Positions 6,224 to 56,684 of a DNA stretch of 64,000 nt are shown piece by piece. The position numbers and the translations under genes were made by a program. The stretch covers positions 69,590 to 133,589 of the forward strand of contig CAYQTT010000002.1 in NCBI GenBank assembly GCA_964420555.1, in the 5' to 3' direction. This DNA comes from an uncultured Lentimicrobiaceae bacterium (GTDB lineage: Bacteria > Bacteroidota > Bacteroidia > Bacteroidales > UBA4417). How positions within the stretch are numbered: position 1 is the first letter of the stretch; every line of letters begins with the position of its first letter. Under the pieces are notes generated by a model, which did no database searches, was not told the origin of the DNA, and saw only the letters and a program-made list of their open reading frames with translations.

Positions 6224-8524
6224 TCAGAACGGGTAACCAAAAGCAATATTCAGGATTACATTTTCTTTTCGCCATTGCTTGCTACCCATATTAATGTTGT
6301 CAGTTACCCATCGCTGGTCAGAGGGCAACGAAGGTATCCGCAACGGGATTGCAACATCAAGTCTGAAAACCATAATATTTGCATCAATCCTCAAGCCGAT
6401 TCCTGCATCAACAGCAAGGTCCTTGTACCAGTTCTTTGTAAAAGCACTTCCTGGTGCCCCTGCCTGTTCTTTTCGGTACCATATGTTACCAACATCAGTG
6501 AATATTGCGGTATTTATATACTTTGTCAGTTTTAACCTTAACTCGGAATTGTACTCAAATTTAATTTCTCCTCCCTGCACAGCTTGTGATTGTATGATAG
6601 TATCGGTATAGCTTCCCGGACCCAGAGTGCCATTACGGAAAGCACGCAAACTGTTACTTCCGCCAATAAAAAATTGTTTAATAAAAGGCATTATCTCGCT
6701 GTTGGCATACGAATAACCATAACCGAAAAAAAGGCGGTTTACCCAGGTAGTGCGTTGCATTAATTTTGTATAAACTCTGAAATCGTTGCTGGCAAGCAGG
6801 AACTGGGCATAGGGTATTCCTAAGAAATCCTCCTGATCGCCGGAAACATTTGCAGGACGCACAAAAAGGCTCAACAGGTTTCCTGAAAGACCCATGGAAG
6901 TGCTGTTATAAAACTGTAAATTCGATAACCTGGGATTTGGATTGTTATAATCAAGGGTATATTCGCCACCCACAATAAATTGCTTCTCGAATGATTTTGC
7001 CAGGTTCGGGTCCGCAGCAAGTGTACTATCGTATTCAGGGGTAATATTGGTAGGGTTTACTACATTAAATACGATCGGGTCAAAGGAGTGTTCCCAGTGT
7101 TCGCCGCTCTTCCAGATGTAGCCAAACGAAAAGCGCACTGAACGCATTGTATATAACTTGGGCTTACGCAGGTATTCGGCACCTGCTGATATTTTATTCC
7201 TGGGAATATAATCTGAATTTGTCCGGTTGACCCTGAAAGGCAGGTAAAAAACCGGACGGTAAAAGTTCAATGAACCCGCATAGTTTTGGTTTGAATAGTA
7301 CTGGTTATCCTTGCTTTTTACTAGTTTTTCGATTCCTCCTGATACATCAAGATCCAGATGATCTCCTTTGTGAAATAAATTCCGGTTTGTAAGTTTCAGC
7401 TTTAGCTCGGTACCGGCAAAATTATTCGATTTTGAATAAGCACCTATCTCAGCCTGCATCGACCTTCGGGTATAAGGTGTTAAAAACAATTCAGCATCAA
7501 GCGAAGGTGTTTCAGCGTTTTCGACCGGTGTGAATGTAGTATTGATAAATTTAAAATTATTCAGGTTCACCATGCGTTGCACTGTTGTACGATGGCTGCT
7601 GTAGTTATATAATTCGCCTTCTTTCATTGCAATGTTTTGCTCAAAGAGCACCGGCTTAAACCGTGGCAATGTGTCAATATGCTTAAAGCCTGATGCCTGC
7701 CAAAACGGAATAAAATGCAGAACGGAATCGCGGTCGGAACTGTAGTTCGAATATATTTTAAATTGGTTAATCGTATAGACGTTTCTTGCTTCAACAGGAA
7801 TTTCGGGTTTCACAACCATGCGCGCATAAACCCGGTTCAGATGGTTTGTATCAGCAACCAGCAACAGGTAATCAGGGATGAAAAAGAAATATCCTTTGTT
7901 GCGCAAATCAAGATCAATGCGCTCCCGTTCGGCATTAACGAGATCAAGTGTAAAAGGTGCGCCTTTTTTAAGCATTGTGCCTGACGAAGAAGCAGCAATA
8001 GCTTGCGATAACCTGCTGCTATCAGTCGGAAATATTACAGAGTCAAACTTATATCGCACTCCGGGTGTAATCCGGAAATTTATTGTGCTTTTTCTCTTGT
8101 TTATGACTACACTGTCGGAAACTATGGCATTCAGAAACCCAAGGTCATGCATTTGGGCTACCATCCGCCTTCGCATATCTGCCGGGTTAGCCTGGCTGAG
8201 AAGGACTGGTGGCTCACCGAACTTTTCGTGGAGGTAATAGTTGATCCTTTTCTTTTCCGAGGGTTTACTTATGCTGTAACTTATTAATGGCAGCCGCATG
8301 AATGCAATCTTTTGATTTTCAACCGGCCAGGTTTTTGAAAGCAATTGAGATTTGATTTCACTCTCATATTCGTTTTTTTTATCGAAAGTGATTTTTGAAC
8401 CTGTAAAAAGATAATCTTTCTCAGGCACATACCTGTATATATCACACGACGAAACCAACAACAAAAGTGTTGATATTACAAAAAACCAGAAGCCCGAAGT
8501 CCTTTTTTGCATCGTTTGCGTCAT
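6224..8524 (-). CDS. Omp85/BamA-family outer-membrane protein, lipoprotein type (TamL-like partner of TamB)
   Basis: 766 aa. A lipobox-like signal 'LLLLVSSC' is followed by a POTRA-like region and a C-terminal 16-strand-barrel-like region ending 'NIAFGYPF' (terminal aromatic). The start overlaps the tamB stop by 4 nt (ATGA at 8521-8524). Confidence 0.7.
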   Translation of the reverse strand: MTQTMQKRTSGFWFFVISTLLLLVSSCDIYRYVPEKDYLFTGSKITFDKKNEYESEIKSQLLSKTWPVENQKIAFMRLPLISYSISKPSEKKRINYYLHEKFGEPPVLLSQANPADMRRRMVAQMHDLGFLNAIVSDSVVINKRKSTINFRITPGVRYKFDSVIFPTDSSRLSQAIAASSSGTMLKKGAPFTLDLVNAERERIDLDLRNKGYFFFIPDYLLLVADTNHLNRVYARMVVKPEIPVEARNVYTINQFKIYSNYSSDRDSVLHFIPFWQASGFKHIDTLPRFKPVLFEQNIAMKEGELYNYSSHRTTVQRMVNLNNFKFINTTFTPVENAETPSLDAELFLTPYTRRSMQAEIGAYSKSNNFAGTELKLKLTNRNLFHKGDHLDLDVSGGIEKLVKSKDNQYYSNQNYAGSLNFYRPVFYLPFRVNRTNSDYIPRNKISAGAEYLRKPKLYTMRSVRFSFGYIWKSGEHWEHSFDPIVFNVVNPTNITPEYDSTLAADPNLAKSFEKQFIVGGEYTLDYNNPNPRLSNLQFYNSTSMGLSGNLLSLFVRPANVSGDQEDFLGIPYAQFLLASNDFRVYTKLMQRTTWVNRLFFGYGYSYANSEIMPFIKQFFIGGSNSLRAFRNGTLGPGSYTDTIIQSQAVQGGEIKFEYNSELRLKLTKYINTAIFTDVGNIWYRKEQAGAPGSAFTKNWYKDLAVDAGIGLRIDANIMVFRLDVAIPLRIPSLPSDQRWVTDNINMGSKQWRKENVILNIAFGYPF

Positions 8525-11500
8525 TTGTTTTGGGTATCTTTTTTCTTTTTCAGTATTTCGCGGTACTTGTTAAAGTCGAGATATACACCAAGGTTGATAC
8601 CGGTTTGGATCACCTGCCCCGAAGTCCCCACTTCGTATTGATCTTTTCTATAAGCTTTCAGCCTGTAGCGCCCATCCCTGGTAAGTTTATACTCAGCTGA
8701 ATAGTTACCGGCCAGTCCCGAAGTATTTCGTTTATGTTGTTCAGAACCTTCGATTGCAAAAGTGCTTCCGACAGATATAGTATACCGGTCGTTAAACATG
8801 GTTCGGCTCACATTTACTTTCAGGTCGGTGGTATTGGATTTATCTCCTGATGAATAGTCGGCCCTCGAATCAACTTCGAAGTTTACATCTATTTTCTTAA
8901 ATCTGGATGCTATTAATGAGTTTAGCTGCTGCGATACAAGGCTTCCGGCCGTGCTACGAGCTGCTGATTCATAATCAAAAAGAGTACCTGAACCTGACCC
9001 TGATGACAGAGGATCCTGTGGAACAAACTGGCTGAGAAACAGCAAACCCATAACCTGTTTGTTGAGTTCCGATTCGTTAAGGTTTATCTGTTTTATCCTG
9101 GCATAAACAACGCCCGAAAAAACGTTCTGCTCTTTAGCAGGCATGTCGAGTTTAAAACTTATGGCAGGCTGGAGCAATTTTTTCTTTAAAATCAGGTAAA
9201 CTTCGAAAGGTAGTTTTTGTTTGTAAGCCCCTTTATTCGAAGTTTGTGAACCCGCCAGGATAGCTTCGGCTGTTGTTTCAACCTTATACAAAGCAGTTAA
9301 ATCAATATTGGCATCGGTTGGCGATCCGTTCCATTGTATTGAACTTCCTTGCTGAACGGCGAATTTTCGTTTGATTACCCGACTTATTGTCAACTGGTAT
9401 TCGCCATTATCAATAGTGAATTTACCCTGCATATTCATCTGGCCTCCAGGTTGCTGATTTATTGTCAGTTCGGCATCACCCGCTACTTTCATATAATCAC
9501 CTCCAGTTTTATCAAGATAAATGTTGAGTTTCGAAGTCTTCGTCATTTCGATATTCAGTGCCAGTCCCAATTTAGTTGAAGCTGTGTTTTTCGAAAGTTT
9601 GGTTTTAATAATATTTTTTAAGGCGGAGTCGCTGGCTTGTAACGAATCCACATAAATTATTATACCGTTGTTGACCGAAACAGCTGTATCCACACTGCCC
9701 ATCTCTATATTTAAAACTGATTTTTCATCAACTTTTATATTCCCTTTTACCATTAAAACATCACCTGTACTTGTAATCCGCATATCGGAAGTAAAATATG
9801 CCGGACCATAATATTCCTGTTCAGGCGTGAGTTTCTTATTCAATGCCATGAAATGGTCCGTTTTTACGGCAAGGTCGTAATTGTAGGTGCGGTAGTCTGG
9901 TGTAAGTATCTGTCCGTTAACCTTTGCTGTATTGCCGGTGCTATCGTAAATTACAAAGTCATTAAGAATTATTCCGTTTCTGTTTAATTTAATCTGCTCA
10001 TCAGGAATTTTGAAAAAAGTATTGTATTCGCGATAGCTTCCCTGCAATTCGGAAATGTTTATTTCACCGTTCAAAACGGGTTTATCAATGGTTCCTTCAA
10101 AATTAACCTGACCATTAATATTTCCTTTCAGGTTGCTTATGATTGAATTAAGAAAAGGGTCCAGTGTTTCAATTTTGAATTTTCGGATGCCAATATTTCC
10201 TTTCAATTCGCCTTTGTCCGAATAGCTTGCACTAAGATCCAGATCATTTTCTTTACCCGAAAGATTAATCTGTGCTGTATAGCCAATGCCTGGTTCGTTG
10301 TTTGCTTTAGCAATCATGTTACCTGCATCTACATTATAAGCTTTTAAACTATCGATAGTCAGGTCGGCCGAAAACAGCAGCGGCTCAAAACTACTCAAAC
10401 GGGTAGTCCCGTTTATAATTCCACTTGCTAAAGTTGTATCAGTTGAAATAATTTTTGTGAGTGTGGAAATTGGAAAATCAACCAGTTTTAAATCAAGTGG
10501 TAAGCCGTTTTCAGCGTCTGACGATTGCAATGATAATTGTCTTTTTCCTGAACTCAGGCTCAGGTTGGTATGAATCTGCTTTGCAAGGTTGTATATAGTG
10601 CTGTTATCTGCATTGGCAATCCAGTTATCTCCATTAATAATTTGATCTTCATTAAGATGCAACACAAATTTGCTGGTGTCGTTAATAATATTACCTGCAA
10701 GGTCATATTTCAAGGAATCATACTTATTGAATAGTTTAATGTCCCAGTTTATAATTCCGTCTTTCGCATTTCCTTCAATAAGTGATCGGCTTAGCTTAAT
10801 GGATGAATTTCTGATACCTTCTGAATACAGAGCATATTGCAGTGTATCATTAGTTGTATGAAGGCCGAACAGTGTACTATCGATAACAATATCCCCGTAA
10901 ACCGCTGCTGGGACTGCTAACGCAAACATCAGATCTTTTTCCGCTGTATTTACTACACTTCCGAATTTGATATTTTTCGTAAAAGTTAATCCTGGCACAA
11001 ACGCCGGAATAACCGGATGGTACTTGAACTCTCCTTTCAGTTTGGCATAGGCAGGCTTGAAAATGGTGCCGGTAGGAGGATAGACAGTTACAAAATCAAT
11101 CAGCAGGTTTTGGGCTACAGCCGGAAGAACATCAATTTCATAATTTCCTTCCAGATTCATATCAAGGAAAGGCGAACGTACAACAATAGATTGAGTTGTT
11201 TCTATATTAACAGCTACCATGCTTATTGAATCGAGTTTATACTGATGCTGCCCTTTCGTTATTTCAATATGCGGAATATGAATAGTGCCGTTGATGTGTT
11301 TCGCATTTACAGTGGTTAAATCTGCAATTATGTCACCCCTGAATTTCAAAGTATCTGTCATTATACCAATACGTTGCAGATCGATATTGCTGATATGCGC
11401 ATTGGCTTCCAATAAAGGATTTAAACTGTCGAGCGAGTAGTTTGCATAAATTTCGGTATTTACGGCGCTGTCCAGTATCTGAAATCGGGCGTCAATAATG

Positions 11501-13485
11501 GAAGCCGAAATTGCAGCATCCAAATCTATGTTCCGGTAATTATACCCCTTCAAATAAACAGCCGGAATTTTAGCTTTTATTTGTGCTTCAGCAGTTTCGG
11601 CACTAATTCCTTTACCATTAATTTTGATATCGAAAGCTGTATTTCCATATATTGTATCCATCAGGATTTTTTCCAATTGCAATCCATCCGACTGTGTATG
11701 AATGTTATACGATAACTTATCGGCTCCCGGGAGCTGATTTACGTTTCCTTGCAGCGCCAGATCGCCGGCACTGCTTTTCAATGCCAGATCGAAAGTGTAG
11801 GCTCCTTTTTTATCGCCAAGTTTTCCTTTAAGTTTGAAACTTTCATTGGTAGCAATGTTTGGAGGAATGCTTCCTTCGGGCAGAAGATTTGCAAGTCTTC
11901 TGGTCGTTCCACTGAATTCCTTGAGGTTTATTGACGCCAGAATCTGATCAGGATCAGGCAATCCTTTGATGCTACCTGATGCTGATAAGTTGATTTTGTT
12001 GATTTTAAGTTTCAGGTTTTCAACCATCATGTCCGAAACTTTTCCTGCAAGCTTACCTTCGATCGAAATATTGTTTGAGAGTAGTTTTGTGATTTCAGGG
12101 TCGTTGCCGGCCATTGTGCGGAAATGCTTCATGTCACTGGCTGCAAGAAGTATCTTTTTAATGTTGATATCAAATCCTAATAGCCCCGGATTATCGCTTA
12201 TAGCTTCAAGTGATTCGTAATTTATTCGGAAATTCCCTTCCATTTCCGAAGCCGGGGTTTTCAGCAGAAACTGATCCAGAATTACACCTGTATCGGAATA
12301 GTGAAAACCTGTACTTAGCTGCTGAATAGCAAATCCGCATTGCTCTTCGGCTTGAAACTGCCTGATAGTTCCCTGAAAAGCAGCTCCCTCAAATGCAAAA
12401 TCCTTGAGCATGACCTGAAGATTTCGCAGATGAATATGTTCCTGGTTAAAATCAGTACCTGCTTTCTCAGTTTCTTTTTCCTGATCGTATTTAAGATCGT
12501 TGTCCTGCAGATTAATAGTTGCAATACTTACAGAAAATGGTTCACTTTCGGTAGCGGATGATTCCTCCTTTTTTGCTTTATTCTCTGGTTCCGTTCTTGT
12601 AATCAGTACTTTACTCTGATGTTGTGCAAGCAACACTTGTTGAAGTGTAAGCAGGTTTGTATTCAGGTTCAGGTTTAAGTTTTCAGCATGAAAATTCAGG
12701 ATATTGGTTTCGGATTGGTACCCTGCTCCTGGCATCTGAACCGAAAAGTCATTGTTGAGAAGCGAAACCTGATCAATAATAACCTGTGGAAGCAGCCCCG
12801 AGGTTTCGTTTTGTGTTATGTCTGATTCCGAAGAACCTAAATCTAATTTTGCAGTTAAACCATCTGTTTCAAAGCTTTTGATTTTATAAAGTTGGTTCAC
12901 AAGGTCCAGCTTATCGACATATAGTGCTATCCTATCCGATTTTACATCATAAAACTGCTTGCCTTTTTTGTCATCCATGATATAGTGTAACTGATTGATA
13001 TCCAGTTTTTCTATATTTATCGCCATCGAATTTCCTGTACTCTCCTTTTCCGCTTCATGTGATGGTGACGAGGAAAAAGACTGAATAATAAAATCAAAAT
13101 TGAATGCAGAGTCGAATTCGGCCCGTGCCATTCTGAAATACAGAGTATCAACTTCTATATGTTGAACCGAAACAGTATTAGTCAGCAAGGCAAACAGGTT
13201 GTAATTAGTTTTCAAACTACCGATATGCAAAAGTTCAACATCTGAAAGATCGTTGATTGAAAAAGTTGTAATTTCAATATGCGAAAACAGGTTTGTACGG
13301 AACCCGCCGATTAACACATTGGTTCCTGTTTTTTCCGAAAGGTACGAAGATGCTTTTTTACGAATGATATTCTGCGCGTAATCCGTTTGTAAAAGAACCA
13401 AAACTATAATAATCGAAATAAGGAAAAAACCAAGTGTGTATGTAATCCACCTTGCAATAGTTTTAACGATTTTCCCTTTATCCAT
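8521..13485 (-). CDS. tamB: Translocation and assembly module protein TamB (DUF490 C-terminus)
   Basis: 1654 aa with a single N-terminal TM anchor (WITYTLGFFLISIIIVLVLL) and a very long beta-rich repetitive body. The conserved TamB-type C-terminal region ends '...RLKAYRKDQYE...GINLGVYLDF'. It is translationally coupled to the downstream Omp85 gene. Confidence 0.75.
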   Translation of the reverse strand: MDKGKIVKTIARWITYTLGFFLISIIIVLVLLQTDYAQNIIRKKASSYLSEKTGTNVLIGGFRTNLFSHIEITTFSINDLSDVELLHIGSLKTNYNLFALLTNTVSVQHIEVDTLYFRMARAEFDSAFNFDFIIQSFSSSPSHEAEKESTGNSMAINIEKLDINQLHYIMDDKKGKQFYDVKSDRIALYVDKLDLVNQLYKIKSFETDGLTAKLDLGSSESDITQNETSGLLPQVIIDQVSLLNNDFSVQMPGAGYQSETNILNFHAENLNLNLNTNLLTLQQVLLAQHQSKVLITRTEPENKAKKEESSATESEPFSVSIATINLQDNDLKYDQEKETEKAGTDFNQEHIHLRNLQVMLKDFAFEGAAFQGTIRQFQAEEQCGFAIQQLSTGFHYSDTGVILDQFLLKTPASEMEGNFRINYESLEAISDNPGLLGFDINIKKILLAASDMKHFRTMAGNDPEITKLLSNNISIEGKLAGKVSDMMVENLKLKINKINLSASGSIKGLPDPDQILASINLKEFSGTTRRLANLLPEGSIPPNIATNESFKLKGKLGDKKGAYTFDLALKSSAGDLALQGNVNQLPGADKLSYNIHTQSDGLQLEKILMDTIYGNTAFDIKINGKGISAETAEAQIKAKIPAVYLKGYNYRNIDLDAAISASIIDARFQILDSAVNTEIYANYSLDSLNPLLEANAHISNIDLQRIGIMTDTLKFRGDIIADLTTVNAKHINGTIHIPHIEITKGQHQYKLDSISMVAVNIETTQSIVVRSPFLDMNLEGNYEIDVLPAVAQNLLIDFVTVYPPTGTIFKPAYAKLKGEFKYHPVIPAFVPGLTFTKNIKFGSVVNTAEKDLMFALAVPAAVYGDIVIDSTLFGLHTTNDTLQYALYSEGIRNSSIKLSRSLIEGNAKDGIINWDIKLFNKYDSLKYDLAGNIINDTSKFVLHLNEDQIINGDNWIANADNSTIYNLAKQIHTNLSLSSGKRQLSLQSSDAENGLPLDLKLVDFPISTLTKIISTDTTLASGIINGTTRLSSFEPLLFSADLTIDSLKAYNVDAGNMIAKANNEPGIGYTAQINLSGKENDLDLSASYSDKGELKGNIGIRKFKIETLDPFLNSIISNLKGNINGQVNFEGTIDKPVLNGEINISELQGSYREYNTFFKIPDEQIKLNRNGIILNDFVIYDSTGNTAKVNGQILTPDYRTYNYDLAVKTDHFMALNKKLTPEQEYYGPAYFTSDMRITSTGDVLMVKGNIKVDEKSVLNIEMGSVDTAVSVNNGIIIYVDSLQASDSALKNIIKTKLSKNTASTKLGLALNIEMTKTSKLNIYLDKTGGDYMKVAGDAELTINQQPGGQMNMQGKFTIDNGEYQLTISRVIKRKFAVQQGSSIQWNGSPTDANIDLTALYKVETTAEAILAGSQTSNKGAYKQKLPFEVYLILKKKLLQPAISFKLDMPAKEQNVFSGVVYARIKQINLNESELNKQVMGLLFLSQFVPQDPLSSGSGSGTLFDYESAARSTAGSLVSQQLNSLIASRFKKIDVNFEVDSRADYSSGDKSNTTDLKVNVSRTMFNDRYTISVGSTFAIEGSEQHKRNTSGLAGNYSAEYKLTRDGRYRLKAYRKDQYEVGTSGQVIQTGINLGVYLDFNKYREILKKKKDTQNK

Positions 13486-13680
13486 ATGTGGCCAAATGAT
13501 GATATTGAATTTTATTAAATCATAAGTCTGTGCATTAGTTAAGACATGTTTTTAGCGAGTGTTAGTTTAGATTTATTAGGTTAGGAATGTAGCAAACAGT
13601 TTTCTCTTACTTTCATGTTATTCACCTGTAAGCAGTTGTATCGCAAGGTGTTGTTGAAATTAAAATATATTTTTTTTTGT

Positions 13681-13735
13681 AAAAAAGAATAAAACAGCCA
13701 GAAAAAGTGCAGTGAAACTGAACTTGATTTCTGGC
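13681..13735 (-). terminator. Possible terminator of the small OMP gene
   Basis: The inverted repeat GCCAGAAA (13697-13704) / TTTCTGGC (13728-13735) is followed on the minus strand by a U-rich tract. The loop is long (23 nt), so support is weak. Confidence 0.3.
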
Positions 13736-13787
13736 GGTTAATCCCTTTCAAAAGTCACAAACTATTCTGAATTTATGACAATGAACT

Positions 13788-14354
13788 TTAAAAATGAAGT
13801 GTTGCCCCAAACTGCCAGTAAGCATTTCGAGCGCCATGGTTAGTTTCAACCAGACTGTAGTGATACCTGGTTTCAATGGAAACAATCAGTATGTTAATTC
13901 CAAGTCCTCCAAAAGCAGGCAAGTCAAAAGATTTGGATTTCTGCTCGTCAGTCGGGGTTGTTAATTCGTCGTCAATTATTATTTTTTCTCCAATTTTTAC
14001 TTTTGGTTGCACACCTGCTAGTACATAAACAGGACCAACTTTAGCCTTCAGATAGGCTGGGATTCCAATGTAGTTTATAACTTGCCTGTTGTCGTCAGCC
14101 AATTCAGCTCCGTTTTTACAAAACTCGAGACCTGCACCCCAATGGAGAAAAGGGATTATTTTATTCTCTTTGAAAGCGCCAGCATAGAACCCACCGTAAT
14201 TTGATGTACCGGCAACCCTGTCACCGCCTTCGAAGAGTCCGGAAATTTGATAACCGGCACGAACCCCAATGCTATGTTTCCCCTGTGCCTGAACTGACTG
14301 GATAGAAACAGCTATAATTGCGATTAAAATGATGAAAGTGTAAATTCGTTTCAT
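13788..14354 (-). CDS. Small outer-membrane beta-barrel protein (OmpW/porin-family-like)
   Basis: 188 aa with a signal peptide ending 'VQAQ', alternating aromatic/Gly beta-strand pattern, and a C-terminal 'WQFGATLHF'. Confidence 0.6.
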   Translation of the reverse strand: MKRIYTFIILIAIIAVSIQSVQAQGKHSIGVRAGYQISGLFEGGDRVAGTSNYGGFYAGAFKENKIIPFLHWGAGLEFCKNGAELADDNRQVINYIGIPAYLKAKVGPVYVLAGVQPKVKIGEKIIIDDELTTPTDEQKSKSFDLPAFGGLGINILIVSIETRYHYSLVETNHGARNAYWQFGATLHF

Positions 14355-14591
14355 GTTTATGGTTTTTGGTTAAAAAATAGTTAGCTGATAAACTGAAATA
14401 TTTAAATTTTGTTCAATTACATAAGCTGATTTTTAAACAAATATAGTGGTTTTCCCATGGCTAAACGAATTAGTTGTTCCCAGGCCTGCATGCAGCAAAA
14501 TCTTTGTAATGCTTCAGTATTTTAATGCAGCGGCAGTAAACTGAATTTAGCCAATTCATGCAAATTAAGTATCAGATGTCCACACTTTCTT

Positions 14592-14599
14592 TACTTTTG
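14592..14599 (+). promoter_or_regulatory. Bacteroidota-type -7 box (TAnnTTTG) upstream of the djlA-like gene
   Basis: TACTTTTG lies 20 nt upstream of the ATG at 14620. No clear -33 TTTG was found. Confidence 0.35.
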
Positions 14600-14619
14600 C
14601 ACCTCAATTTATAAATACA

Positions 14620-15366
14620 ATGGCGAAATTTTTAAAATGGCTTGGCGGAGGTATCGGCTGGGCTGCAGGCGGGCCAATTGGTGCAATACTCGGCTTCGCG
14701 CTTGGTTCCATGGTCGATGGCATGCAAAGCGGAGCGTATGCCTATGAACCACACAAACAACCGAATTTCAATAAGCCGCAGACAACTCCTAACGATTTTG
14801 TAATTAGTCTGTTAGTACTTTCGGCAGCAGTTATGCGCTCCGACGACAGGGTTATGCGTTCGGAACTTGACTTTGTGAAAAGGTTTTTAGTACAACAATT
14901 TGGTGTTAATGAAGCTGAACGTCAGTTACTTATTTTACGCGAACTGTTAAATAAAAGTTATGATCTTCAGCAGGTTGGAACCCAGATCAAGCAGTATATG
15001 GAATACCCGTCGAGGCTGCAATTGATGCATTTCCTGTTCGGGTTGGCTGGCGCCGATAATCAGGTTCATGCCGGCGAATTAAGAACTATCACACAAATTT
15101 CTATCATTCTTGGTATCCGCACCACTGATTTTGAGAGCATCAAAGCTATGTTTGTAAAGGATACGACCAGTGCATACCGTATTTTAGAAGTAACTCCTGA
15201 AGCTTCCGAAGAAGAATTGAAAAAGGCCTACCGCCGCATGGCCTTAAAATACCATCCCGACCGCTTGGCGCATCTTGGTGATGATATGCAAAAAGCTGCC
15301 AATTCCAAATTTCAGGAACTGAACGCAGCTTATGAGCAGATTAAGAAGGAAAGGAATATTGTTTAG
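14620..15366 (+). CDS. DjlA-like co-chaperone: N-terminal Gly-rich membrane segment, TerB-like domain, C-terminal J domain
   Basis: The J-domain signature '[30 protein letters not shown]' sits at the C-terminus. The central region is TerB-like and the N-terminus '[21 protein letters not shown]' is membrane-like. Confidence 0.7.
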
Positions 15367-15387
15367 ACGATATATTGGGATTATGGA

Positions 15388-15465
15388 GGGGGACAAGGAG
15401 AGGGGGGACAAGGAGAGTGGCGACAAGGCGAACTTGAAACCAGAAACTTGAAACAAGAAACTTTT
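15388..15465. repeat. Two adjacent tandem repeats (3 x 15 bp, then 2.3 x 14 bp) filling a convergent intergenic spacer
   Basis: The first array is GGGGGACAAGGAGAG x2 plus TGGCGACAAGGCGAA (15388-15432). The second is CTTGAAACCAGAAA / CTTGAAACAAGAAA / CTTTT (15433-15465). Confidence 0.9.
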
Positions 15466-16268
15466 CAATCCTTCCCAAAATCCAGCAAATCAATTTTCAA
15501 TATCCTTGCCAGCAACTGATATAACGTTTGGTTATACTCCCTGAAATCAAGCGGTTGTTCAAAAAAACATTCAACCGCAACCGAAAAAAACTCTTCCAGG
15601 TTGGCAGCACTATATGATCTGAAAAAAGTGTTTTCACCGTTCTCAGTTTTCTGCATTTCGAGCATCGCCTCTTTTTCAAATAGTAGCATAGTTTTACGAT
15701 CGATAAAATCATATTCCTCATTATCAACAATATTTGTAAGCCGCAGTGCATGAGCCATTTCGTGCATGGCAAGGTTTCGGCCATCCGTAGGATTGCTGTA
15801 GCCCGACATAAAATTTTTCCACGACAACACAATAGCACCGCCTGCGTTCACCTCACCTTCGTGATAATAACCTGTATGCGCTGAGTAATATTCCTCTGCA
15901 AAAAGGATAATGGTTTTAAAGTGATTAAAATACACGTCGGGATAGCCATAAGTAAGCTGAACAGCAGAAGCGGCTATCATAATCCGCATCTCATCGGTTA
16001 CCATCTGAAGGCTCTTGCCTGCCCTGAAATCTTTCATCTCGATAAATTTGCAGACGCGTTTTTCGAAAAGTTCCCTACCGCTTGCGCTAAGTAACTTATA
16101 CACAACAAAATTGCTCAGAAGCAGCTTTCTGAAACTTCTTGTATCATCAATATCAAAGTATTTTAAGCATTTAGGTTTTGAAAAAAAATGATAATCTTCG
16201 GGTTTTAACAAAATCCAAAAAATATAAACTAGTCCTGCCGTAATTAAAAAGTAGTAAAAGTATTCCAT
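15465..16268 (-). CDS. MtfA-like zinc metallopeptidase (peptidase M90 family)
   Basis: There is an N-terminal TM segment, an HExxH motif 'HEMAHAL', and the M90-typical C-terminal 'EEFFSVAVECFFEQP'. Confidence 0.65.
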   Translation of the reverse strand: MEYFYYFLITAGLVYIFWILLKPEDYHFFSKPKCLKYFDIDDTRSFRKLLLSNFVVYKLLSASGRELFEKRVCKFIEMKDFRAGKSLQMVTDEMRIMIAASAVQLTYGYPDVYFNHFKTIILFAEEYYSAHTGYYHEGEVNAGGAIVLSWKNFMSGYSNPTDGRNLAMHEMAHALRLTNIVDNEEYDFIDRKTMLLFEKEAMLEMQKTENGENTFFRSYSAANLEEFFSVAVECFFEQPLDFREYNQTLYQLLARILKIDLLDFGKD

Positions 16269-16486
16269 GAGCTCAATAATAATAAGGCACGCAAGATACT
16301 ATAATTACTGATTCGGGAATATGGGTAAAGGTTTCGGGTTAGATCCGGTTGGCGCAAAAATACATAGATCAACTCCACTGAATATTTATCTTTGCAAGCA
16401 TCTGCACTACAGGTCAGCTGTTTCACGGAAAGTGATGTCAACCGGTAGGATTTATAGCCTTTTACCTGATTAAAACATAGACTTTT

Positions 16487-19159
16487 ATGAAAAAAACAGC
16501 ACTTTTTCTTGCAATTTTTATTCTTACAGGTGTTAACGCCATTTCGCAGGTGTTGCCGTATAAAAATCCGAAATTAACTGTAGATGAGCGCGTTGAAGAT
16601 CTTTTGCAACGTATGACACTAAAGGAAAAATTCTGGCAGGTTTTTATGATTCCCGGCGACCTCGACGAAGGAAAAGAAAAATACATGGATGGGATTTTCG
16701 GTTTTCAAACCTTTGCCAAAGGCCAGACCACCGATGCTGTTGGCCAGATGTTAACATATGGCTCATCAGGAACTCCGAAGCAGACTGCCGAAAAGATCAA
16801 TGCCATGCAAAAGTTTTTCCTCGAAGAAACCCGCCTCGGCATTCCGATTATCCCTTTCGACGAAGCTCTTCACGGACTTGTACGCGATGGCGCAATTGCA
16901 TATCCGCAATCTATCGCCTTAGCTTCCACCTGGAATCCCGAGCTGATGTTTAAAGTTTCCTCAGCCATTGCAACTGAAAGTAAAACTCGCGGTATCAGGC
17001 AGATACTTTCGCCGGTGGTTAACCTTGCCAGCGATGTTCGCTGGGGCCGGACTGAAGAAACATATGGGGAAGATCCTTTCCTCTCTTCAAAAATGGGCAT
17101 TGCTTTTGTTTCCGCTTTCGAAAAACAGGGTGTTATAGCAACACCTAAACATTTTGTGGCTAATGTGGGAGCCGGTGGCCGCGACAGCTATCCGATCGAT
17201 TTCAGCGAACGTTATCTGAATGAACTTGATTTTCAACCTTTCATGGCTTGCTTTTCGACCGGAGGTGCTCGCTCCGTCATGACTTCGTACAATACACTCG
17301 ATGGTTCGCCATGTACAGCCAACGATCGCTTACTGAACCAGATACTGAAACGCGACTGGGATTTTAATGGATTTGTGATTTCGGATGCAAGCGCAGTAGG
17401 TGGTGCCAATGTGCTGCATTTTACAGCTGCAGATTATGCCGATGCAACCGCGCAGGCCATCAATAACGGATTGGATGTTATTTTTCAGACGTCCTACGAT
17501 CATTATCCTTTATTCTGGGAAGCATTCGAAAAAGGAATGGTTAAACCTGAAGCACTTAACGAAGCCGTACGCAGGGTTTTACGTGCTAAATTTGAACTGG
17601 GACTTTTCGAAAATCCATACGTTGATGCCACCGAAGCCGAAAAATGGAACGGACATGCATCTTTCCGCGAACTGGCCAGGCAATCAGCCCGCGAATCAAT
17701 AGTGCTTTTTAAAAATGACAAGCAGGTGCTTCCGCTTAAAAACAATATAAAATCTATAGCAGTTATTGGTCCCGATGCTGTCGAAAGCAGGCTCGGTGGA
17801 TATGCCGGTCCCGGAATTAAAAAAACTTCCATCCTCGACGGACTAAAAGCACAGCTTCCTGCCGGTTGCAAGGTGAGTTATTCACATGGTGTTGACAGGG
17901 AATATAAACCGTTCGTAACAGTTCCGTCGCGATACTTATCCTGCACTTTTGAGGGAAAAGATAAAAGCGGGCTTTACGGCGAATATTACAATAACATCAA
18001 TCTATCGGGTGAGGCTGTTGTAAAAAGGGTTGACGAAAATATGCAGTTTGGCTGGACATTATATTCGCCGGATCCCAAACTGGCTTTCGATTGCTACTCC
18101 ATCCGATGGAAAGGTAAAATCACCGCACCTGCAACCGGTAATTATAAAATCGGCATCGAAGGAAATGACGGTTACCGTATGTATATCAATGATAAACTTA
18201 TGATTGATAACTGGAAGAAAGTTTCTTTCGGAATTCAAACTATTGATTATAATTTTGAAAAGGGCAAATCCTATGATATCCGTATTGAGTATTTCGAAAG
18301 CTCAGGTACTGCCAGGTTCAGGCTGATATGGAATTATGGTGTTGATGATCTGTGGCAGAAACAGATTAATGAAGCAGTAGAAATTGCTAAAAACGCAGAA
18401 GTTGTAATACTTACTGTCGGAATCGAAGAAGGCGAATTCCGCGATCGTGCTTTGCTTAGTTTACCTGGCAAACAGGAGCAGTTGATCGATGCTGTTGCAG
18501 CCACTGGGAAACCGGTTATTGTTCTACTATCGGGTGGAAGCGCTATTACAATGAATAACTGGATTGATAAAGTGGATGCTATTGCTGATATCTGGTATCC
18601 TGGTGAAGAAGGCGGAAATGCTGTTGCTGATGTTTTATTGGGGAAATACAATCCTTCCGGGAAATTAACCATAACTTTCCCGATGCACGAAGCGCAACTT
18701 CCATTGGTTTACAATCACAAACCAACAGGTAGGGGAGATGATTATAATAATTTAACCGGTCAGCCGCTTTTCCCGTTTGGATATGGCCTCAGCTACACAA
18801 CATTTGAATATTCGGATTTAAAATTTTCGGGAAAGGAAATTACTGCTGATGGCAAAACAAGTGTTAGCTTTAAAATTAAAAATACAGGGAAATTTGCCGG
18901 TGAAGAAGTCGTGCAACTCTACATCCGCGATTTGCTTTCATCCGTTTCGCAGCCCATTATTGCGTTAAAGGGATTTCAGAAAATAAGTCTTGCTCCGGGC
19001 GAAACAAAAGAAGTGTCGTTCGACATAACGCCCGAACTACTTCTTATGCTTGATAAAAACATGAAATGGATTGTCGAACCTGGCGATTTCCGTATTATGA
19101 TAGGCGCTTCCAGCAAAGATATCAGGCTGATGGAAAATTTAACAGTTGTCGCGAAATAA
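16487..19159 (+). CDS. bglX: Glycoside hydrolase family 3 beta-glucosidase with inserted PA14 domain
   Basis: 890 aa with a signal peptide. The GH3 N-domain ('GIPIIPFDEALHG', 'GFVISDA') and C-domain are interrupted by a PA14-like segment ('GLYGEYYNN...YRMYINDKLMIDNW'). A fibronectin-like C-terminus follows. Confidence 0.85.
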   Translation: MKKTALFLAIFILTGVNAISQVLPYKNPKLTVDERVEDLLQRMTLKEKFWQVFMIPGDLDEGKEKYMDGIFGFQTFAKGQTTDAVGQMLTYGSSGTPKQTAEKINAMQKFFLEETRLGIPIIPFDEALHGLVRDGAIAYPQSIALASTWNPELMFKVSSAIATESKTRGIRQILSPVVNLASDVRWGRTEETYGEDPFLSSKMGIAFVSAFEKQGVIATPKHFVANVGAGGRDSYPIDFSERYLNELDFQPFMACFSTGGARSVMTSYNTLDGSPCTANDRLLNQILKRDWDFNGFVISDASAVGGANVLHFTAADYADATAQAINNGLDVIFQTSYDHYPLFWEAFEKGMVKPEALNEAVRRVLRAKFELGLFENPYVDATEAEKWNGHASFRELARQSARESIVLFKNDKQVLPLKNNIKSIAVIGPDAVESRLGGYAGPGIKKTSILDGLKAQLPAGCKVSYSHGVDREYKPFVTVPSRYLSCTFEGKDKSGLYGEYYNNINLSGEAVVKRVDENMQFGWTLYSPDPKLAFDCYSIRWKGKITAPATGNYKIGIEGNDGYRMYINDKLMIDNWKKVSFGIQTIDYNFEKGKSYDIRIEYFESSGTARFRLIWNYGVDDLWQKQINEAVEIAKNAEVVILTVGIEEGEFRDRALLSLPGKQEQLIDAVAATGKPVIVLLSGGSAITMNNWIDKVDAIADIWYPGEEGGNAVADVLLGKYNPSGKLTITFPMHEAQLPLVYNHKPTGRGDDYNNLTGQPLFPFGYGLSYTTFEYSDLKFSGKEITADGKTSVSFKIKNTGKFAGEEVVQLYIRDLLSSVSQPIIALKGFQKISLAPGETKEVSFDITPELLLMLDKNMKWIVEPGDFRIMIGASSKDIRLMENLTVVAK

Positions 19160-24415: not shown

Positions 24416-24558
24416 GTTCAAAGTTCAAAGGTTTAAAAGTTTAAAGTTCAAATATTCAAGGGTTCAAAGTTCAATCTCATTATCAGCAACAATTTCACAT
24501 TTTCAAATCTCCACATTCTCAAATCCCCAAATCCCCAAATCCCCACATTCTCAAATCC
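24416..24558. repeat. Composite microsatellite-like block: (GTTCAAA/GTTTAAA)n then (CAAATCC[C])n / CCACATTCTCAAATCC x2
   Basis: Block 1 spans 24416-24474 and block 2 spans 24496-24558. The last unit overlaps the stop codon (24551-24553) of the upstream minus-strand gene. Confidence 0.9.
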
Positions 24559-40397: not shown

Positions 40398-42284
40398 ATG
40401 AAGAACCTTCTTTTCTTTATTCTGGTAGTGTTCATTGCCAATGTCCAGGCTCAGAACAACGTACTGAACCTGATTCCTCAACCTGTTGAACTTAAATTGG
40501 AAAAAGGTTCCTATACCCTTACCAAATCAACATCTTTAGGGTATAATAAGCCGGAAAGCCGCGAAATTGCTGAAATGCTGGTTGAAAAAATAAACCTGGC
40601 AACCGGCTTTAAGTTAAAAGCAGCAGTAGGTAATAAAAGTGCCATTCAGCTAAACCTGAACTCAACCCCCGATCCGCAATTGGGTAACGAAGGATATTTG
40701 CTTGTTTCTACGTCAAAAGGAATCCTTATCAGCGCAAATCAGCCGGCAGGCTTATTTTATGGTGTGCAGACTTTGCTACAGCTTCTGCCTGTAGAAATTG
40801 AAAGCAAAGATGCAGTAAGTCAGAAATGGACAGTTCCTGCCGTTACTATTAAAGATTATCCCCGGTTTGCATGGCGTGGATTGATGCTTGATGTTAGTCG
40901 TAATTTCTTCACCAAAGAGGAGGTGAAGCAGTATATTGATGAAATGGTACGATTCAAATTCAATACTTTTCACTGGCATCTTACTGATGATGAAGGCTGG
41001 AGGATCGAAATAAAATCGTTGCCAAAACTTACTGAAGTTGGCGCATGGAGGGTTCCGCGGGCAGGGCATTTCGGGGATCGAGATTTCCCCAAGCCTGGTG
41101 AAGCAGCTACTGTTGGTGGTTTTTATACGCAGGATGATATCAGGGAAATTGTTCAATATGCCAAAGCAAGAAATGTAACCATTGTGCCCGAAATTGATGT
41201 ACCTGGTCACAGCATGGCTGCTATTGCATCGTATCCTGAACTAAGTTGTAAAAAAGACACCAGCACCAGTGTTAGCCCGGGAAGTAAATTCTCGGAATGG
41301 TATGGAAACGGGACTTTTAAGATGAATGTCGAAAATGCGCTTAATCCTTCTGATGAAAATGTATATGTGTTTCTGGATAAAGTATTTACAGAAGTAGCGG
41401 CACTTTTTCCCGGGCAATATATTCACGTAGGTGGCGATGAGTGTTACAAAGGCTACTGGAAAGAGGATGAAGGTTGCCAGAAACTAATGAAAGAACTGGG
41501 GATCAGGCATGTGGAAGATCTTCAGGGATATTTCATGCACAGGGTGGAAGCGATTCTGAAAAAAAATGGTAAAAAACTGATAGGGTGGGACGAAATCCTG
41601 GAAGGTGGCATTGCTCCGGAAGCTACGGTGATGAGCTGGCGCGGTATAAAAGGTGGAATTGAAGCCGCTCAAATGGGGCATGATGTGGTAATTTCACCTA
41701 CCACTTTTGCTTACCTCGATTATACCCAGGGCGAACGCACAGTGGACCCGCCGATATATGCCAGCCTTCGTTTAAAAAAGTGCTATAGTTTTGAGCCGGT
41801 TCCTGATGGTGTTGATGCAAAATATATTTTGGGTGGACAAGGTAATTTGTGGACTGAACAGGTTCCAACGCTTCGTTATGCCTATTATATGACCTATCCA
41901 CGCGCATGGGCTTTATCTGAAGTGTATTGGTCGCCAAAGGAAAGTAAAAACTGGGACAGCTTTATTCAGCGAGTTGAAAAACAGTTCGATCGTTCGGATG
42001 TTGCTGAAACAAATTATTCAAAAGCCATCTACGACCCGATAATTACTATGTCGCGGCGCGACGGTAAACTTTTATTGACCATGGAGTCTGAGGCACCAAA
42101 TATCGATATTTACTATACCATTAATGATGTAATGCCCGACAAGTTTACCAGCCTTTACACTCAACCAGCCGAACTTCCTGAAGGCCCCATAACGCTCCGT
42201 GTTGTATCATACCGCGATGGAAAACCCATCGGACATCTTATCACATTAAAAAGGGATGAACTGGAGAGACGAGCAGGGAAGTAG
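40398..42284 (+). CDS. Beta-N-acetylhexosaminidase, glycoside hydrolase family 20
   Basis: It has a signal peptide, 'RGLMLDVSRNF', 'FHWHLTDDEGWR' and the catalytic 'HVGGDEC'. Confidence 0.88.
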   Translation: MKNLLFFILVVFIANVQAQNNVLNLIPQPVELKLEKGSYTLTKSTSLGYNKPESREIAEMLVEKINLATGFKLKAAVGNKSAIQLNLNSTPDPQLGNEGYLLVSTSKGILISANQPAGLFYGVQTLLQLLPVEIESKDAVSQKWTVPAVTIKDYPRFAWRGLMLDVSRNFFTKEEVKQYIDEMVRFKFNTFHWHLTDDEGWRIEIKSLPKLTEVGAWRVPRAGHFGDRDFPKPGEAATVGGFYTQDDIREIVQYAKARNVTIVPEIDVPGHSMAAIASYPELSCKKDTSTSVSPGSKFSEWYGNGTFKMNVENALNPSDENVYVFLDKVFTEVAALFPGQYIHVGGDECYKGYWKEDEGCQKLMKELGIRHVEDLQGYFMHRVEAILKKNGKKLIGWDEILEGGIAPEATVMSWRGIKGGIEAAQMGHDVVISPTTFAYLDYTQGERTVDPPIYASLRLKKCYSFEPVPDGVDAKYILGGQGNLWTEQVPTLRYAYYMTYPRAWALSEVYWSPKESKNWDSFIQRVEKQFDRSDVAETNYSKAIYDPIITMSRRDGKLLLTMESEAPNIDIYYTINDVMPDKFTSLYTQPAELPEGPITLRVVSYRDGKPIGHLITLKRDELERRAGK

Positions 42285-42558
42285 TTTCTTATTACGCCCT
42301 TGCAGGGCTTGAAGAACTGACTGATTAGCTCTTATTAACGAAGGCCTTCACCCTTCGTTCTGGTATGACGCCCTTTCAGGGCTTGAAGGATTGACTGAAT
42401 AGCTTTATTAACGAAGGGCTTCACTCTTCGTTCTGAGATAGCACCCTTTCAGAGCTTGAAGGACTGACTGACTAGCTTTATTAACGAAGGGCTTCACCCT
42501 TCGTTCTGAGATAGCGCCTTTTCAGGGCTTACCTCTCATAGCCCTTAAAGGGCGTAAT
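42285..42558. repeat. Tandem array (~3.2 x 73-74 bp) of a two-hairpin unit, bracketed by inverted copies of the small hairpin
   Basis: Units start at about 42294, 42368, 42441 and 42514 (partial). The hairpins are GCCCTttcAGGGC and AACGAAGGGcttcaCCCTTCGTT. ATTACGCCCTTgcaGGGC (42291-42308) is mirrored by GCCCttaAAGGGCGTAAT (42541-42558). Confidence 0.9.
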
Positions 42559-42560
42559 AC

Positions 42561-42680
42561 ATCAACGATGGACGCAGTCCATCGAATCACATCAACGATG
42601 GACGCAGTCCATCGAATCACATGAACGATGGATGCAGTCCATCGTATAACACCAGCGACGGACACAGTCCATCCTATAAA
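42561..42680. repeat. Tandem array (4 x 30 bp) of a REP-like stem-loop unit
   Basis: The unit is ATCAACGATGGACGCAGTCCATCGAATCAC. Copies 1 and 2 are identical, copy 3 has 5 substitutions and copy 4 is more diverged. Each has the 8-bp stem CGATGGAC/GTCCATCG with loop GCA. Confidence 0.9.
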
Positions 42681-42708
42681 GTTAACCTTAATACTAGAGA
42701 TATAGCAT

Positions 42709-43161
42709 ATGGGACAGTCCTTAGTAAAGAATTACATACATATCGTCTTCAGCACCAAATACCGCGCACCAATCATTCATCCGCCTTATGAACTTGAACT
42801 TCATGCCTACCTTGGTGGTATATGTAACAATCTCGAATGCCATACACTAAAAGTTGGTGGCTATACTGACCATGTGCATTTACTGTGCATGCTCTCAAAA
42901 AAGATCGCCTTAATGAAGCTTTTAGAGGAAGTCAAATCTCATTCTTCGAAATGGATGAAAACTAAAGATTATTCTCTTAATAACTTTTACTGGCAGGATG
43001 GATATGGCGCATTCTCTGTTAATCCGGCACAAGTCGATAGGGTAGTAGCCTATATCGGGAATCAGCATGTACACCACATGAAAAAAGATTTTCAGAATGA
43101 GTTCAGGTCCTACCTGAAAAAATACAATGTTGAATACGACGAACGCTATGTCTGGGATTAG
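42709..43161 (+). CDS. IS200-like Y1 (HUH) tyrosine transposase homolog, REP-associated (RAYT)-like
   Basis: 150 aa with 'NYIHIVFSTKYR', the HUH motif in 'GYTDHVHLLC' and the C-terminal helix Tyr 'VVAYIGNQ'. No tnpB is adjacent. The hairpin arrays lie immediately 5'. Confidence 0.75.
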   Translation: MGQSLVKNYIHIVFSTKYRAPIIHPPYELELHAYLGGICNNLECHTLKVGGYTDHVHLLCMLSKKIALMKLLEEVKSHSSKWMKTKDYSLNNFYWQDGYGAFSVNPAQVDRVVAYIGNQHVHHMKKDFQNEFRSYLKKYNVEYDERYVWD

Positions 43162-43200
43162 TCATTACGCAACCTTTAAATAAAAACAAAAACCATACTC

Positions 43201-56639: not shown

Positions 56640-56684
56640 CAATCCCATCAATCTCATCAATCCCGTCAATCCCATCAATCCTCC
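56640..56684. repeat. 5 x 9-bp tandem repeat (CAATCCCAT consensus) between radC stop and wecB start
   Basis: The units are CAATCCCAT CAATCTCAT CAATCCCGT CAATCCCAT CAATCCTCC. The array ends 8 nt from the radC stop codon. Confidence 0.9.

Follow-up and report, generated by a model that had tools for sequence, protein, structure and literature searches.

Why should two arrays of hairpin repeats stand beside a transposase-like gene? The question is raised by positions 42285-43161 of the window, by which we mean the whole 64,000-nt stretch of an uncultured Lentimicrobiaceae contig analysed here. There, two repeat arrays lie between the stop codon of a GH20 gene and a gene for a 150-aa protein of the HUH/Y1 type, and an earlier note had described them as unrelated hairpin families next to a gene resembling those of the REP-associated tyrosine transposases (RAYTs; REP, repetitive extragenic palindromic). 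The reading that we favour, at a probability of roughly 65%, is that a domesticated HUH/Y1 endonuclease of the IS200 clade, subclass 1.2, has its home site here along with the REP-like DNA modules that are its partners. The comparisons set out below suggest that the hairpins are conserved partners of the Y1 gene, and the window locus itself is an ordinary, slightly degenerate member of this module/Y1 system.

The repeated module spans 48 nt. In it, a variable hairpin of 8-9 bp is joined by a linker of 12 nt (TATnnC) to a near-invariant hairpin of 5 bp, hereafter the core, GCCCTTTCAGGGC (GCCCT-TTC-AGGGC). A search of Rfam in E-value mode matched two copies to family RF01687, the Acido-Lenti-1 RNA motif (Weinberg et al. 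2010, PMC2864571), at 42540-42584 on the minus strand (30.5 bits) and at 42339-42383 on the plus strand (23.9 bits). Both miss the gathering threshold of 37 bits, which modules at related loci pass with 37.7-50.6 bits. Each of the two matches carries the 8-9 bp hairpin, a 12-nt linker with TAT..CG and the 5-bp GCCCT-TTN-AGGGC, followed by T. Moreover, an independent repeat search found the plus-strand copy (module X, 42339-42383) and the minus-strand copy (module Y, 42540-42584) to be 76% reverse-complementary over 45 nt which, together with the shared architecture, makes them variants of a single module on opposite strands. The two families taken for unrelated in the earlier note are thus homologous, and one covariance model, R1, built from 32 modules of many genomes, matches both. 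When the whole window was scanned with R1, filters off, positions 42282-42676 gave three plus modules, one minus module, three minus hairpin-only partial matches and one core-only copy. The features of the locus are as follows.

42282..42310, plus strand: core-only module, TATTACGCCCTTGCAGGGCT at 42290-42309, directly 3′ of the GH20 stop; covariance-model partial match, 19 bits.
42295..42530, plus strand: 73-nt tandem array of 3.2 copies; Tandem Repeats Finder, period 73, score 365, 88% matches.
42337..42384, plus strand: bipartite module X1, full, with AACGAAGGCCTTCACCCTTCGTT, linker and GCCCTTTCAGGGC; model R1 58.9 bits, Acido-Lenti-1 23.9 bits.
42410..42457, plus strand: module X2, with a degraded core (CACCCTTTCAGAGC); model R1 31.4 bits.
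42483..42530, plus strand: module X3; model R1 48.3 bits.
42539..42586, minus strand: module Y, canonical upstream module facing away from the gene, with CGATGGACTGCGTCCATCG, TTGATGTATTAC and GCCCTTTAAGGGC; model R1 62 bits, Acido-Lenti-1 30.5 bits, E = 4.8e-5.
42559..42673, no strand assigned: 30-nt tandem array of 3.8 copies; Tandem Repeats Finder, period 30, score 174, 88% matches; pattern matches and partial model matches.
42709..43161, plus strand: HUH/Y1 endonuclease gene, 150 aa; Pfam PF01797, E = 7.5e-25, and NCBIfam IS200 model.
43162..43181, plus strand: probable decayed relic of a downstream core, TCATTACGCAACCTTTAAAT, by its likeness to intact cores 6 nt past the stop in other lineages.

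Much of the anatomy described in the earlier note is borne out by these features: an array of about 3.2 units of 73-74 bp directly after the GH20 stop, an array of 30-bp units that decays towards the gene, and an inverted bracket of small hairpins. The 73-nt unit runs in the order core hairpin, 27-nt spacer, hairpin X, linker, next core. The core-only module is the left arm of the inverted bracket, found by the repeat search as a 20-nt pair, 42290-42309 and 42540-42559, with 90% complementarity. Module X3 is convergent with module Y, their core starts being 25 nt apart, and the orientation of module Y fits the rule, seen in relatives, of an upstream module on the opposite strand. The 30-nt array is the large hairpin of module Y, repeated without its core at 42566-42584, 42596-42614, 42626-42644 and 42656-42674. 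In the 64-kb window, this interval alone contains the long hairpin AACGAAGGGCTTCACCCTTCGTT, the hairpin CGATGGACGCAGTCCATCG and the flanked small hairpin; shuffled sequences give 0-0.2 occurrences. On the 3′ side there is indeed no intact hairpin, as had been remarked; that side is not blank, however, since 43162-43181 is probably a decayed copy of the downstream core, whose hairpin can no longer form. In the window's clade, then, the downstream core has decayed, and the upstream side holds a canonical minus module, an amplified large hairpin (the 30-nt array) and three plus modules in a convergent doublet. The gene has GH20 upstream and an ATP-grasp gene as its next downstream neighbour, so the locus has no tnpB, again as the earlier note held. 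A CRISPR-like array was considered and rejected, as the units abut without unique spacers, and low-scoring Rfam matches in the spacer (mir-284, Plastid-psbJ-2, SCARNA7) were rejected as chance.

The evidence that ties module and gene together comes from other genomes. Species representatives of GTDB were scanned with TATNNCGCCCTTTNAGGGCT, giving at least 120 core-bearing stretches, each of at most 8 kb, from Bacteroidota, Ignavibacteria, Chlorobiaceae, Acidobacteriota, Planctomycetota, Verrucomicrobiota, Victivallales, Chlamydiae, Omnitrophota, Hydrogenedentota and a few Proteobacteria. The observations in this and the next paragraph hold among the matches listed. Several genomes were matched on several contigs, one Blastocatellia metagenome-assembled genome (MAG) with at least 4 stretches on 3 contigs. 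A Y1 homologue is present on 18 of the 120 stretches, which were picked by DNA pattern, and all full-length homologues but one carry the subclass 1.2 signature, down to 46% identity. Where the gene is present, it is preceded, 9-18 nt from the ATG, by a core of opposite strand and followed, about 6-12 nt after the stop, by one in its own orientation; these are the nearest cores on either side, and further modules continue outward at steps of about 67-70 nt.

Cores also occur away from the gene, a REP-like spread in other genomes whose counts are lower bounds: 215 are separated by more than 600 nt from the closest Y1 match. Stretches of at least 120 codons without a stop contain only 23% of these distant cores, as compared with 85% of random positions. 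Adjacent cores on the same strand are mostly spaced by 65-74 nt, and pairs on opposite strands, in either arrangement, are commonly found 20-50 nt from each other. Given this family norm, the 73-nt array of the window is typical, and the stacking of head-to-tail arrays, which had been thought unusual, is the rule.

Bracketed Y1 genes were found at more than 10 loci of other phyla, the inverted cores being about 6-18 nt from start and stop codons and often continued outward by head-to-tail arrays of about 67-73 nt period, and in Blastocatellia, Desulfobacterales and Ignavibacteria the inverted bracket is formed by above-threshold Rfam matches. Lineages sampled through the protein gave flanking cores in nine of nine, the last four with an intact or near-intact core exactly 6 nt past the stop. 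The hairpins adjoin the Y1 gene in every orthologue examined, a comparison that the earlier note had proposed. The inverted bracket of partner palindromes, by which RAYTs are recognised, is therefore present family-wide; the window's clade is the exception, with its upstream module intact and the downstream core reduced to the relic at 43162-43181. The 13-nt core and the linker TAT..C are near-invariant across at least eight phyla, despite saturated synonymous sites in the Y1 gene. That this hairpin and linker remain nearly unchanged across Bacteroidota, Ignavibacteria, Chlorobiaceae, Acidobacteriota, Planctomycetota, Verrucomicrobiota, Victivallales and Chlamydiae would point to a function at the level of the host rather than to selfish spread.

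Some of these loci have features of their own. Two metagenome loci (L149, 11812-13294; L176, 24-1414) have 8-12 modules arrayed on both sides of one Y1 gene, far more than in the window arrays, and L217 and L202 show 4-6 modules of 68-nt period with no Y1 gene within the stretch. In L229 (179-2020) two Y1 genes follow one another in tandem at a distance of about 1.35 kb; both are 72% identical to the query and have an upstream core and module of their own. In L239 and L240 (about 7400-17600) the Y1 gene sits amid Fic, SLFN/AlbA_2-HATPase_c_4, EcoEI_R_C and SbcCD genes, a context resembling a defence island, and L240 also has a tandem duplication of a gene pair with 42-aa and 548-aa products. 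In a Chitinophagaceae MAG (L011, 6505-6550) a module on the downstream side of Y1 is broken by a run of about 45 G; the run is probably an assembly artefact, because the related L012 and L013 have two clean modules at that place.

Core and protein also change together. The Persicobacter Y1 protein (52% identity) retains the bracket with the core ACCCTTTCAGGGT and a small hairpin ACCC-TTTCA-GGGT, in which a G-C pair at the base of the stem has become A-T by a compensatory change. In Bernardetia, with a Y1 protein of 35% identity, the core is AGCTnnnnAGCT and the hairpin AGCT-nnnn-AGCT, with the linker TATTnCGC and the inverted bracket retained. The core sequence thus shifts as the protein diverges, with the geometry of the bracket unchanged. 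The Bernardetia sp. gene (NZ_CP147018.1; L244, 19800-20640) encodes a 155-aa Y1 protein with YILNQPEHH, bracketed by inverted hairpins of the AGCTGCGTAGCT type, and the same record holds a second Y1 homologue. The large helix of the module shows compensatory changes at 6 of its 8 pairs, in a set of sequences selected for folding, which favours such an outcome.

These data bear on a different explanation, in which the modules would act mainly as RNA, as the Acido-Lenti-1 small RNA or as 3′ or 5′ UTR structures with a part in the stability, termination or regulation of the GH20 and Y1 transcripts, the Y1 gene being merely a frequent neighbour. It deserves consideration, because Rfam curates this architecture as a small-RNA family, with relatives scoring above the threshold that the window copies miss; because the X modules closely follow the GH20 stop in sense orientation, and the Y hairpins probably belong to the 5′ leader of Y1; and because classical REPs double as stabilisers of mRNA (background cited in PMC6006769). 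The 424-nt spacer, folded against shuffles both as single-stranded DNA (z = -8.7) and as RNA (z = -7.6), is significantly structured in either form. However, the modules occur in both orientations, and their inverted bracket keeps fixed distances from start and stop codons across phyla, so that one of its two modules is always antisense to the Y1 gene; moreover, the core co-varies with the protein. A scan of the spacer predicted no intrinsic terminator-like T-run site and no sigma-70-type promoter, with a tool that does not cover Bacteroidota promoters, which leaves a role in termination without direct support.

The strand that folds can be approached through mismatches. Single modules folded as DNA have equal energies on both strands, so that stability cannot name the functional strand, and the asymmetry of mismatches was used instead. 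In 150 model matches, A.C mismatches in the helices outnumber G.T mismatches on the Rfam strand by 73 to 19, in sequences that are related and with many of the C.A cells at the loop-closing pair. This excess suggests that folding takes place on the complement of the Rfam strand, which reads AGCCCTGAAAGGGCG and has a GAA loop; for the X modules that complement is antisense to all three flanking genes. Orientation and mismatches together lean toward a role at the DNA level, and we regard a mainly RNA-based role as improbable; RNA and DNA roles of the modules are not mutually exclusive.

What kind of protein is associated with the modules? The 150-aa product is a Y1_Tnp protein, as had been predicted from its sequence (the PF01797 match listed above), and scores 66.4 bits with the NCBIfam IS200/IS605 equivalog model (cut-off 55). 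Its HVH motif and its Tyr align with the catalytic residues of IS608 TnpA, and IS608-type TnpA is the only type matched among solved structures. The motifs DHVH, WQ (in YWQDGYG), YIGNQHVHH and a C-terminal YDERYVWD give it the signature of TnpA-Y1 subclass 1.2, in class 1, and not of the RAYTs of class 2, whose Y motif, YIxxNP, it lacks, having YIGNQ. The pattern Y---Q--HH is shared by 20 of 21 distinct core-flanked homologues listed, and the tail ...FQ.E....L.KY.V.YDERYVWD is kept down to 46% overall identity, in a comparison made separately from the published subclass profile. The RAYT-like character proposed in the earlier note therefore survives in behaviour, the gene being domesticated, syntenic and under purifying selection, and fails in class.

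According to Quentin, Siguier, Chandler and Fichant (2018, PMC6006769), subclass 1.2 proteins of about 148 aa lie near the IS200 transposases, lack the properties of insertion sequences (IS), are of low copy number, occur in Cyanobacteria and Bacteroidetes and are scored as 'REP: no'. The automatic REP search of that study demanded a GT[AG]G foot (PMC6006769), so modules of the present kind would have escaped it. Bertels et al. (2017) described an IS200 'Group 3' without duplicates and with moderately abundant flanking 16-mers, which may be the same proteins. The protein family is large, with 7427 database clusters at E ≤ 1e-10, and 150-aa proteins of 77-84% identity occur in Bacteroidales, Chitinophagaceae, Cytophagales, Sphingobacteriales and Ignavibacteria.

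Since databases label these relatives 'IS200/IS605 family transposase', and the NCBIfam score lies above its cut-off, one might assume an ordinary insertion of this type, currently mobile, with the hairpins as its ends. The close relatives speak against it. The order GH20-Y1-ATP-grasp is kept on contigs encoding proteins 89-97% identical, so that the gene has kept its chromosomal position even in relatives whose protein is only 89% identical. The ratio of nonsynonymous to synonymous divergence (dN/dS) is 0.02-0.08 for Y1, 0.05-0.07 for GH20 and 0.06-0.14 for ATP-grasp, and the dS of the Y1 gene is comparable to that of its neighbours, from which it follows that the gene has co-diverged with them under strong constraint. 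It is single-copy within the 64 kb; a tblastn search found no phage copy of it, and full-length matches among plasmids only on two Bacteroidota replicons larger than 600 kb. Together with the missing tnpB, the decayed 3′ end, the flanking hairpins inverted unlike those of one-strand IS608, and the published description of the class as devoid of IS properties (PMC6006769), these observations make a mobile insertion very hard to credit, and agree with the earlier note that this is not a normal IS200/IS605 copy. By its fixed gene order, purifying selection and lack of copies on phages or small plasmids, the Y1 gene behaves as domesticated. A functional link to GH20 or ATP-grasp was also considered and rejected, as other lineages have different neighbours. 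In L005, L007 and L008 gene calling gives an ATP-grasp product of 408 aa, and the start of its gene then overlaps Y1 at the 3′ end, which suggests co-transcription or an alternative start.

The arrays between GH20 and ATP-grasp are present in these relatives with the same architecture and different copy numbers. All those examined (L002, L003, L009, L210, L232) have a single 73-nt unit, and the 30-nt unit ranges from one to four copies (one in L009, two in L002, three in L003). L002 and L003 encode an identical protein and are one repeat unit apart, and so are L005 and L006. The hairpin stems vary among lineages by compensatory changes (CGATGGAC, CGGTGGGC, GATGGGC).

In Persicobacter, a scan of the entire 632-kb replicon gave 14 cores, where shuffles give 0-4, and none is more than 13 kb away from the gene. 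Several form gene-less doublets with about 45 nt in place of the 450-nt gene, part of which resembles the gene's 3′ end. By analogy with REPINs and MITEs (REP doublets forming hairpins and miniature inverted-repeat transposable elements, respectively), these look like internal-deletion derivatives; they sit within larger segmental repeats, so that transposition is not demonstrated. The Y1 gene of Persicobacter sp. JZB09 (CP012861.1, about 278-293 kb; L243, 11500-26000) lies within a 13-kb block of segmental repeats, in which families of 267-300 nt (3-7 copies, 60-99% identity) alternate with three paralogous open reading frames of 535-558 aa and the gene-less doublets recur 4-5 times. In an Acidobacteria MAG (L023, at 212, 5405 and 7561), the last 15 nt or so of the Y1 gene, about 25 nt and a core occur three times in 8 kb; only one full Y1 match is present, cut by the end of the locus.

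How might such a system work? By extension from IS608 TnpA and the E. coli RAYT (PMC6006769, PMC8266576), the enzyme would act on single-stranded DNA and would recognise the small hairpin there, as those enzymes do theirs. The conserved linker bases might serve as cleavage or guide context, at which the enzyme would cut and rejoin. Its activity, combined with replication slippage between directly repeated cores, could create and resize the arrays, and might occasionally seed gene-less doublets elsewhere.

Several points weigh against this reading. Model R1 found no module in the other 63.5 kb of the window, and there is none in the 10-kb flanks of three protein-sampled loci or in the remaining 619 kb of Persicobacter's replicon, where there is local clustering and no replicon-wide dispersal. 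A metagenome scan whose pattern took in the two hairpins of the window gave 98 stretches; in these, hairpin X joined to the linker of the window occurred at orthologous loci alone, and the exact sequence of hairpin Y was absent. The genome scan, with its at least 120 stretches, was sampled by DNA pattern. The action of the enzyme is proposed by analogy, the closest solved structure being IS608 TnpA (E = 1e-6), and slippage alone can explain changes in copy number once two copies exist. Finally, as the downstream core is dead and the gene is nevertheless conserved, the selected role of the enzyme may not require a complete bracket.

Some of these points would also suit a neutral origin, with the arrays as variable-number tandem repeats produced by slippage at the hairpin-rich remnant of an old insertion, and with the role of the Y1 protein unrelated to them. 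Contigs with identical proteins differ by one unit, the array copies of the window are only 88% alike and show decay close to the gene, the 3′ core is already a decayed one, and dispersal was not seen in this lineage, either in the window or in the metagenome scan. Neutral relics, however, would not be expected to keep the near-invariant core and linker described above, to change their stems in a compensatory way, to hold the array period sharply at 65-74 nt family-wide or to track the divergence of the protein. We therefore consider this origin unlikely as well, and retain the interpretation of a domesticated endonuclease with its partner modules.

To which known system does the locus belong? 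With subclass 1.2 (PMC6006769) it shares a length of about 148-150 aa, DH[IV]H, WQ, Y---Q--HH, the C-terminal tail and the occurrence in Bacteroidetes, and probably also the low copy number and the lack of IS properties. In contrast to the published 'REP: no', every member examined here is flanked by a conserved bipartite hairpin module, and beyond the published range of Cyanobacteria and Bacteroidetes core-flanked members occur in Acidobacteriota, Desulfobacterales, Verrucomicrobiales, Ignavibacteria and Chlorobiaceae. The REP/RAYT systems of Proteobacteria (REPtrons, REPINs and BIMEs, or bacterial interspersed mosaic elements) offer a close parallel, with a single-copy, vertically inherited Y1 gene, inverted hairpin flanks, intergenic repeats in arrays and inverted doublets, and co-variation of repeat and protein (PMC2817692, PMC3116915, PMC5581495, PMC8266576). 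The protein here is, however, of the IS200 clade in class 1, whereas RAYTs form class 2; the module has no GTAG foot, its conserved flank being TATnnC, and it is bipartite, with a small hairpin near-invariant across phyla rather than species-specific. Its density is also very low (none in the 63.5 kb and 619 kb mentioned above), and this sparseness in the window and in Persicobacter puts its copy number far below that of classical REPs, which exceed 100 per genome.

Among IS200/IS605 elements, IS608 TnpA (PDB 2a6m, 2vhg) is the closest solved structure and has the HUH and YIxNQ motifs, so that recognition of single-stranded hairpins is to be expected; IS608 itself has end hairpins on one strand and is multicopy, mobile and often accompanied by tnpB, unlike the inverted hairpins, fixed locus and lack of tnpB seen here. 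The TnpA-Y1 proteins of class 3, from Planctomycetes and Acidobacteria (PMC6006769), are likewise intermediate between IS and RAYT, with atypical flanking structures (CnGA foot) in overlapping phyla, but they have about 178 aa, NHVH and Y----Q, against 150 aa, DH[VI]H and Y...Q..HH in the present set. The system thus works like REP/RAYT, differs from RAYTs in motifs, foot and copy number and from insertion sequences in mobility and in the one-strand arrangement of hairpins, and fits subclass 1.2.

With RF01687 the module shares the two-hairpin architecture, the linker length and the UAU..CG linker bases, and the above-threshold matches flank the Y1 genes of relatives. Acidobacteriota and Victivallales, which NCBI taxonomy places in Lentisphaerota, are among the core-bearing genomes in the matches listed. 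The differences are that the window copies are sub-threshold, that RF01687 is curated as a small RNA of unknown function, and that the mismatch asymmetry suggests folding of the complement of the Rfam strand. In the literature searched, none of the papers naming Acido-Lenti-1 ties the motif to a transposase-like gene, and the core sequence retrieved no relevant paper; judged on that literature, the connection between subclass 1.2 and a near-invariant bipartite module curated as Acido-Lenti-1 RNA seems to be new. Whether the Acido-Lenti-1 'small RNA' would in general be the DNA substrate of subclass 1.2 Y1 endonucleases, in an ancient partnership of the REP/RAYT type that arose separately in the IS200 clade, we hold to be an evenly balanced question.

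The window also has other short-period repeats: adjacent arrays at 24416-24558, of a GTTCAAA type with period 7/23 (24416-24474) and of CACATTCTCAAATCCC with period 16/8 (24496-24558), both unrelated to the modules; a 15-nt unit in 2.7 copies followed by a 14-nt unit in 2.4 copies at 15388-15463; and a 9-nt unit, CAATCCCAT, in 4.7 copies at 56640-56681.

The subclass 1.2 Y1 proteins, published in 2018 without repeats, hereby gain a candidate DNA substrate, and an Rfam family annotated as non-coding RNA in Bacteroidales genomes such as Tannerella gains a likely identity. As the module is short and near-invariant and the protein has 150 residues, binding and cleavage assays would be straightforward. 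The copy-number polymorphism beside the Y1 gene is also a natural marker for strain typing in uncultured Bacteroidales. For the evolution of these enzymes, our observations suggest that a hairpin-recognising transposase was domesticated, together with its hairpins, on a separate occasion inside the IS200 clade.

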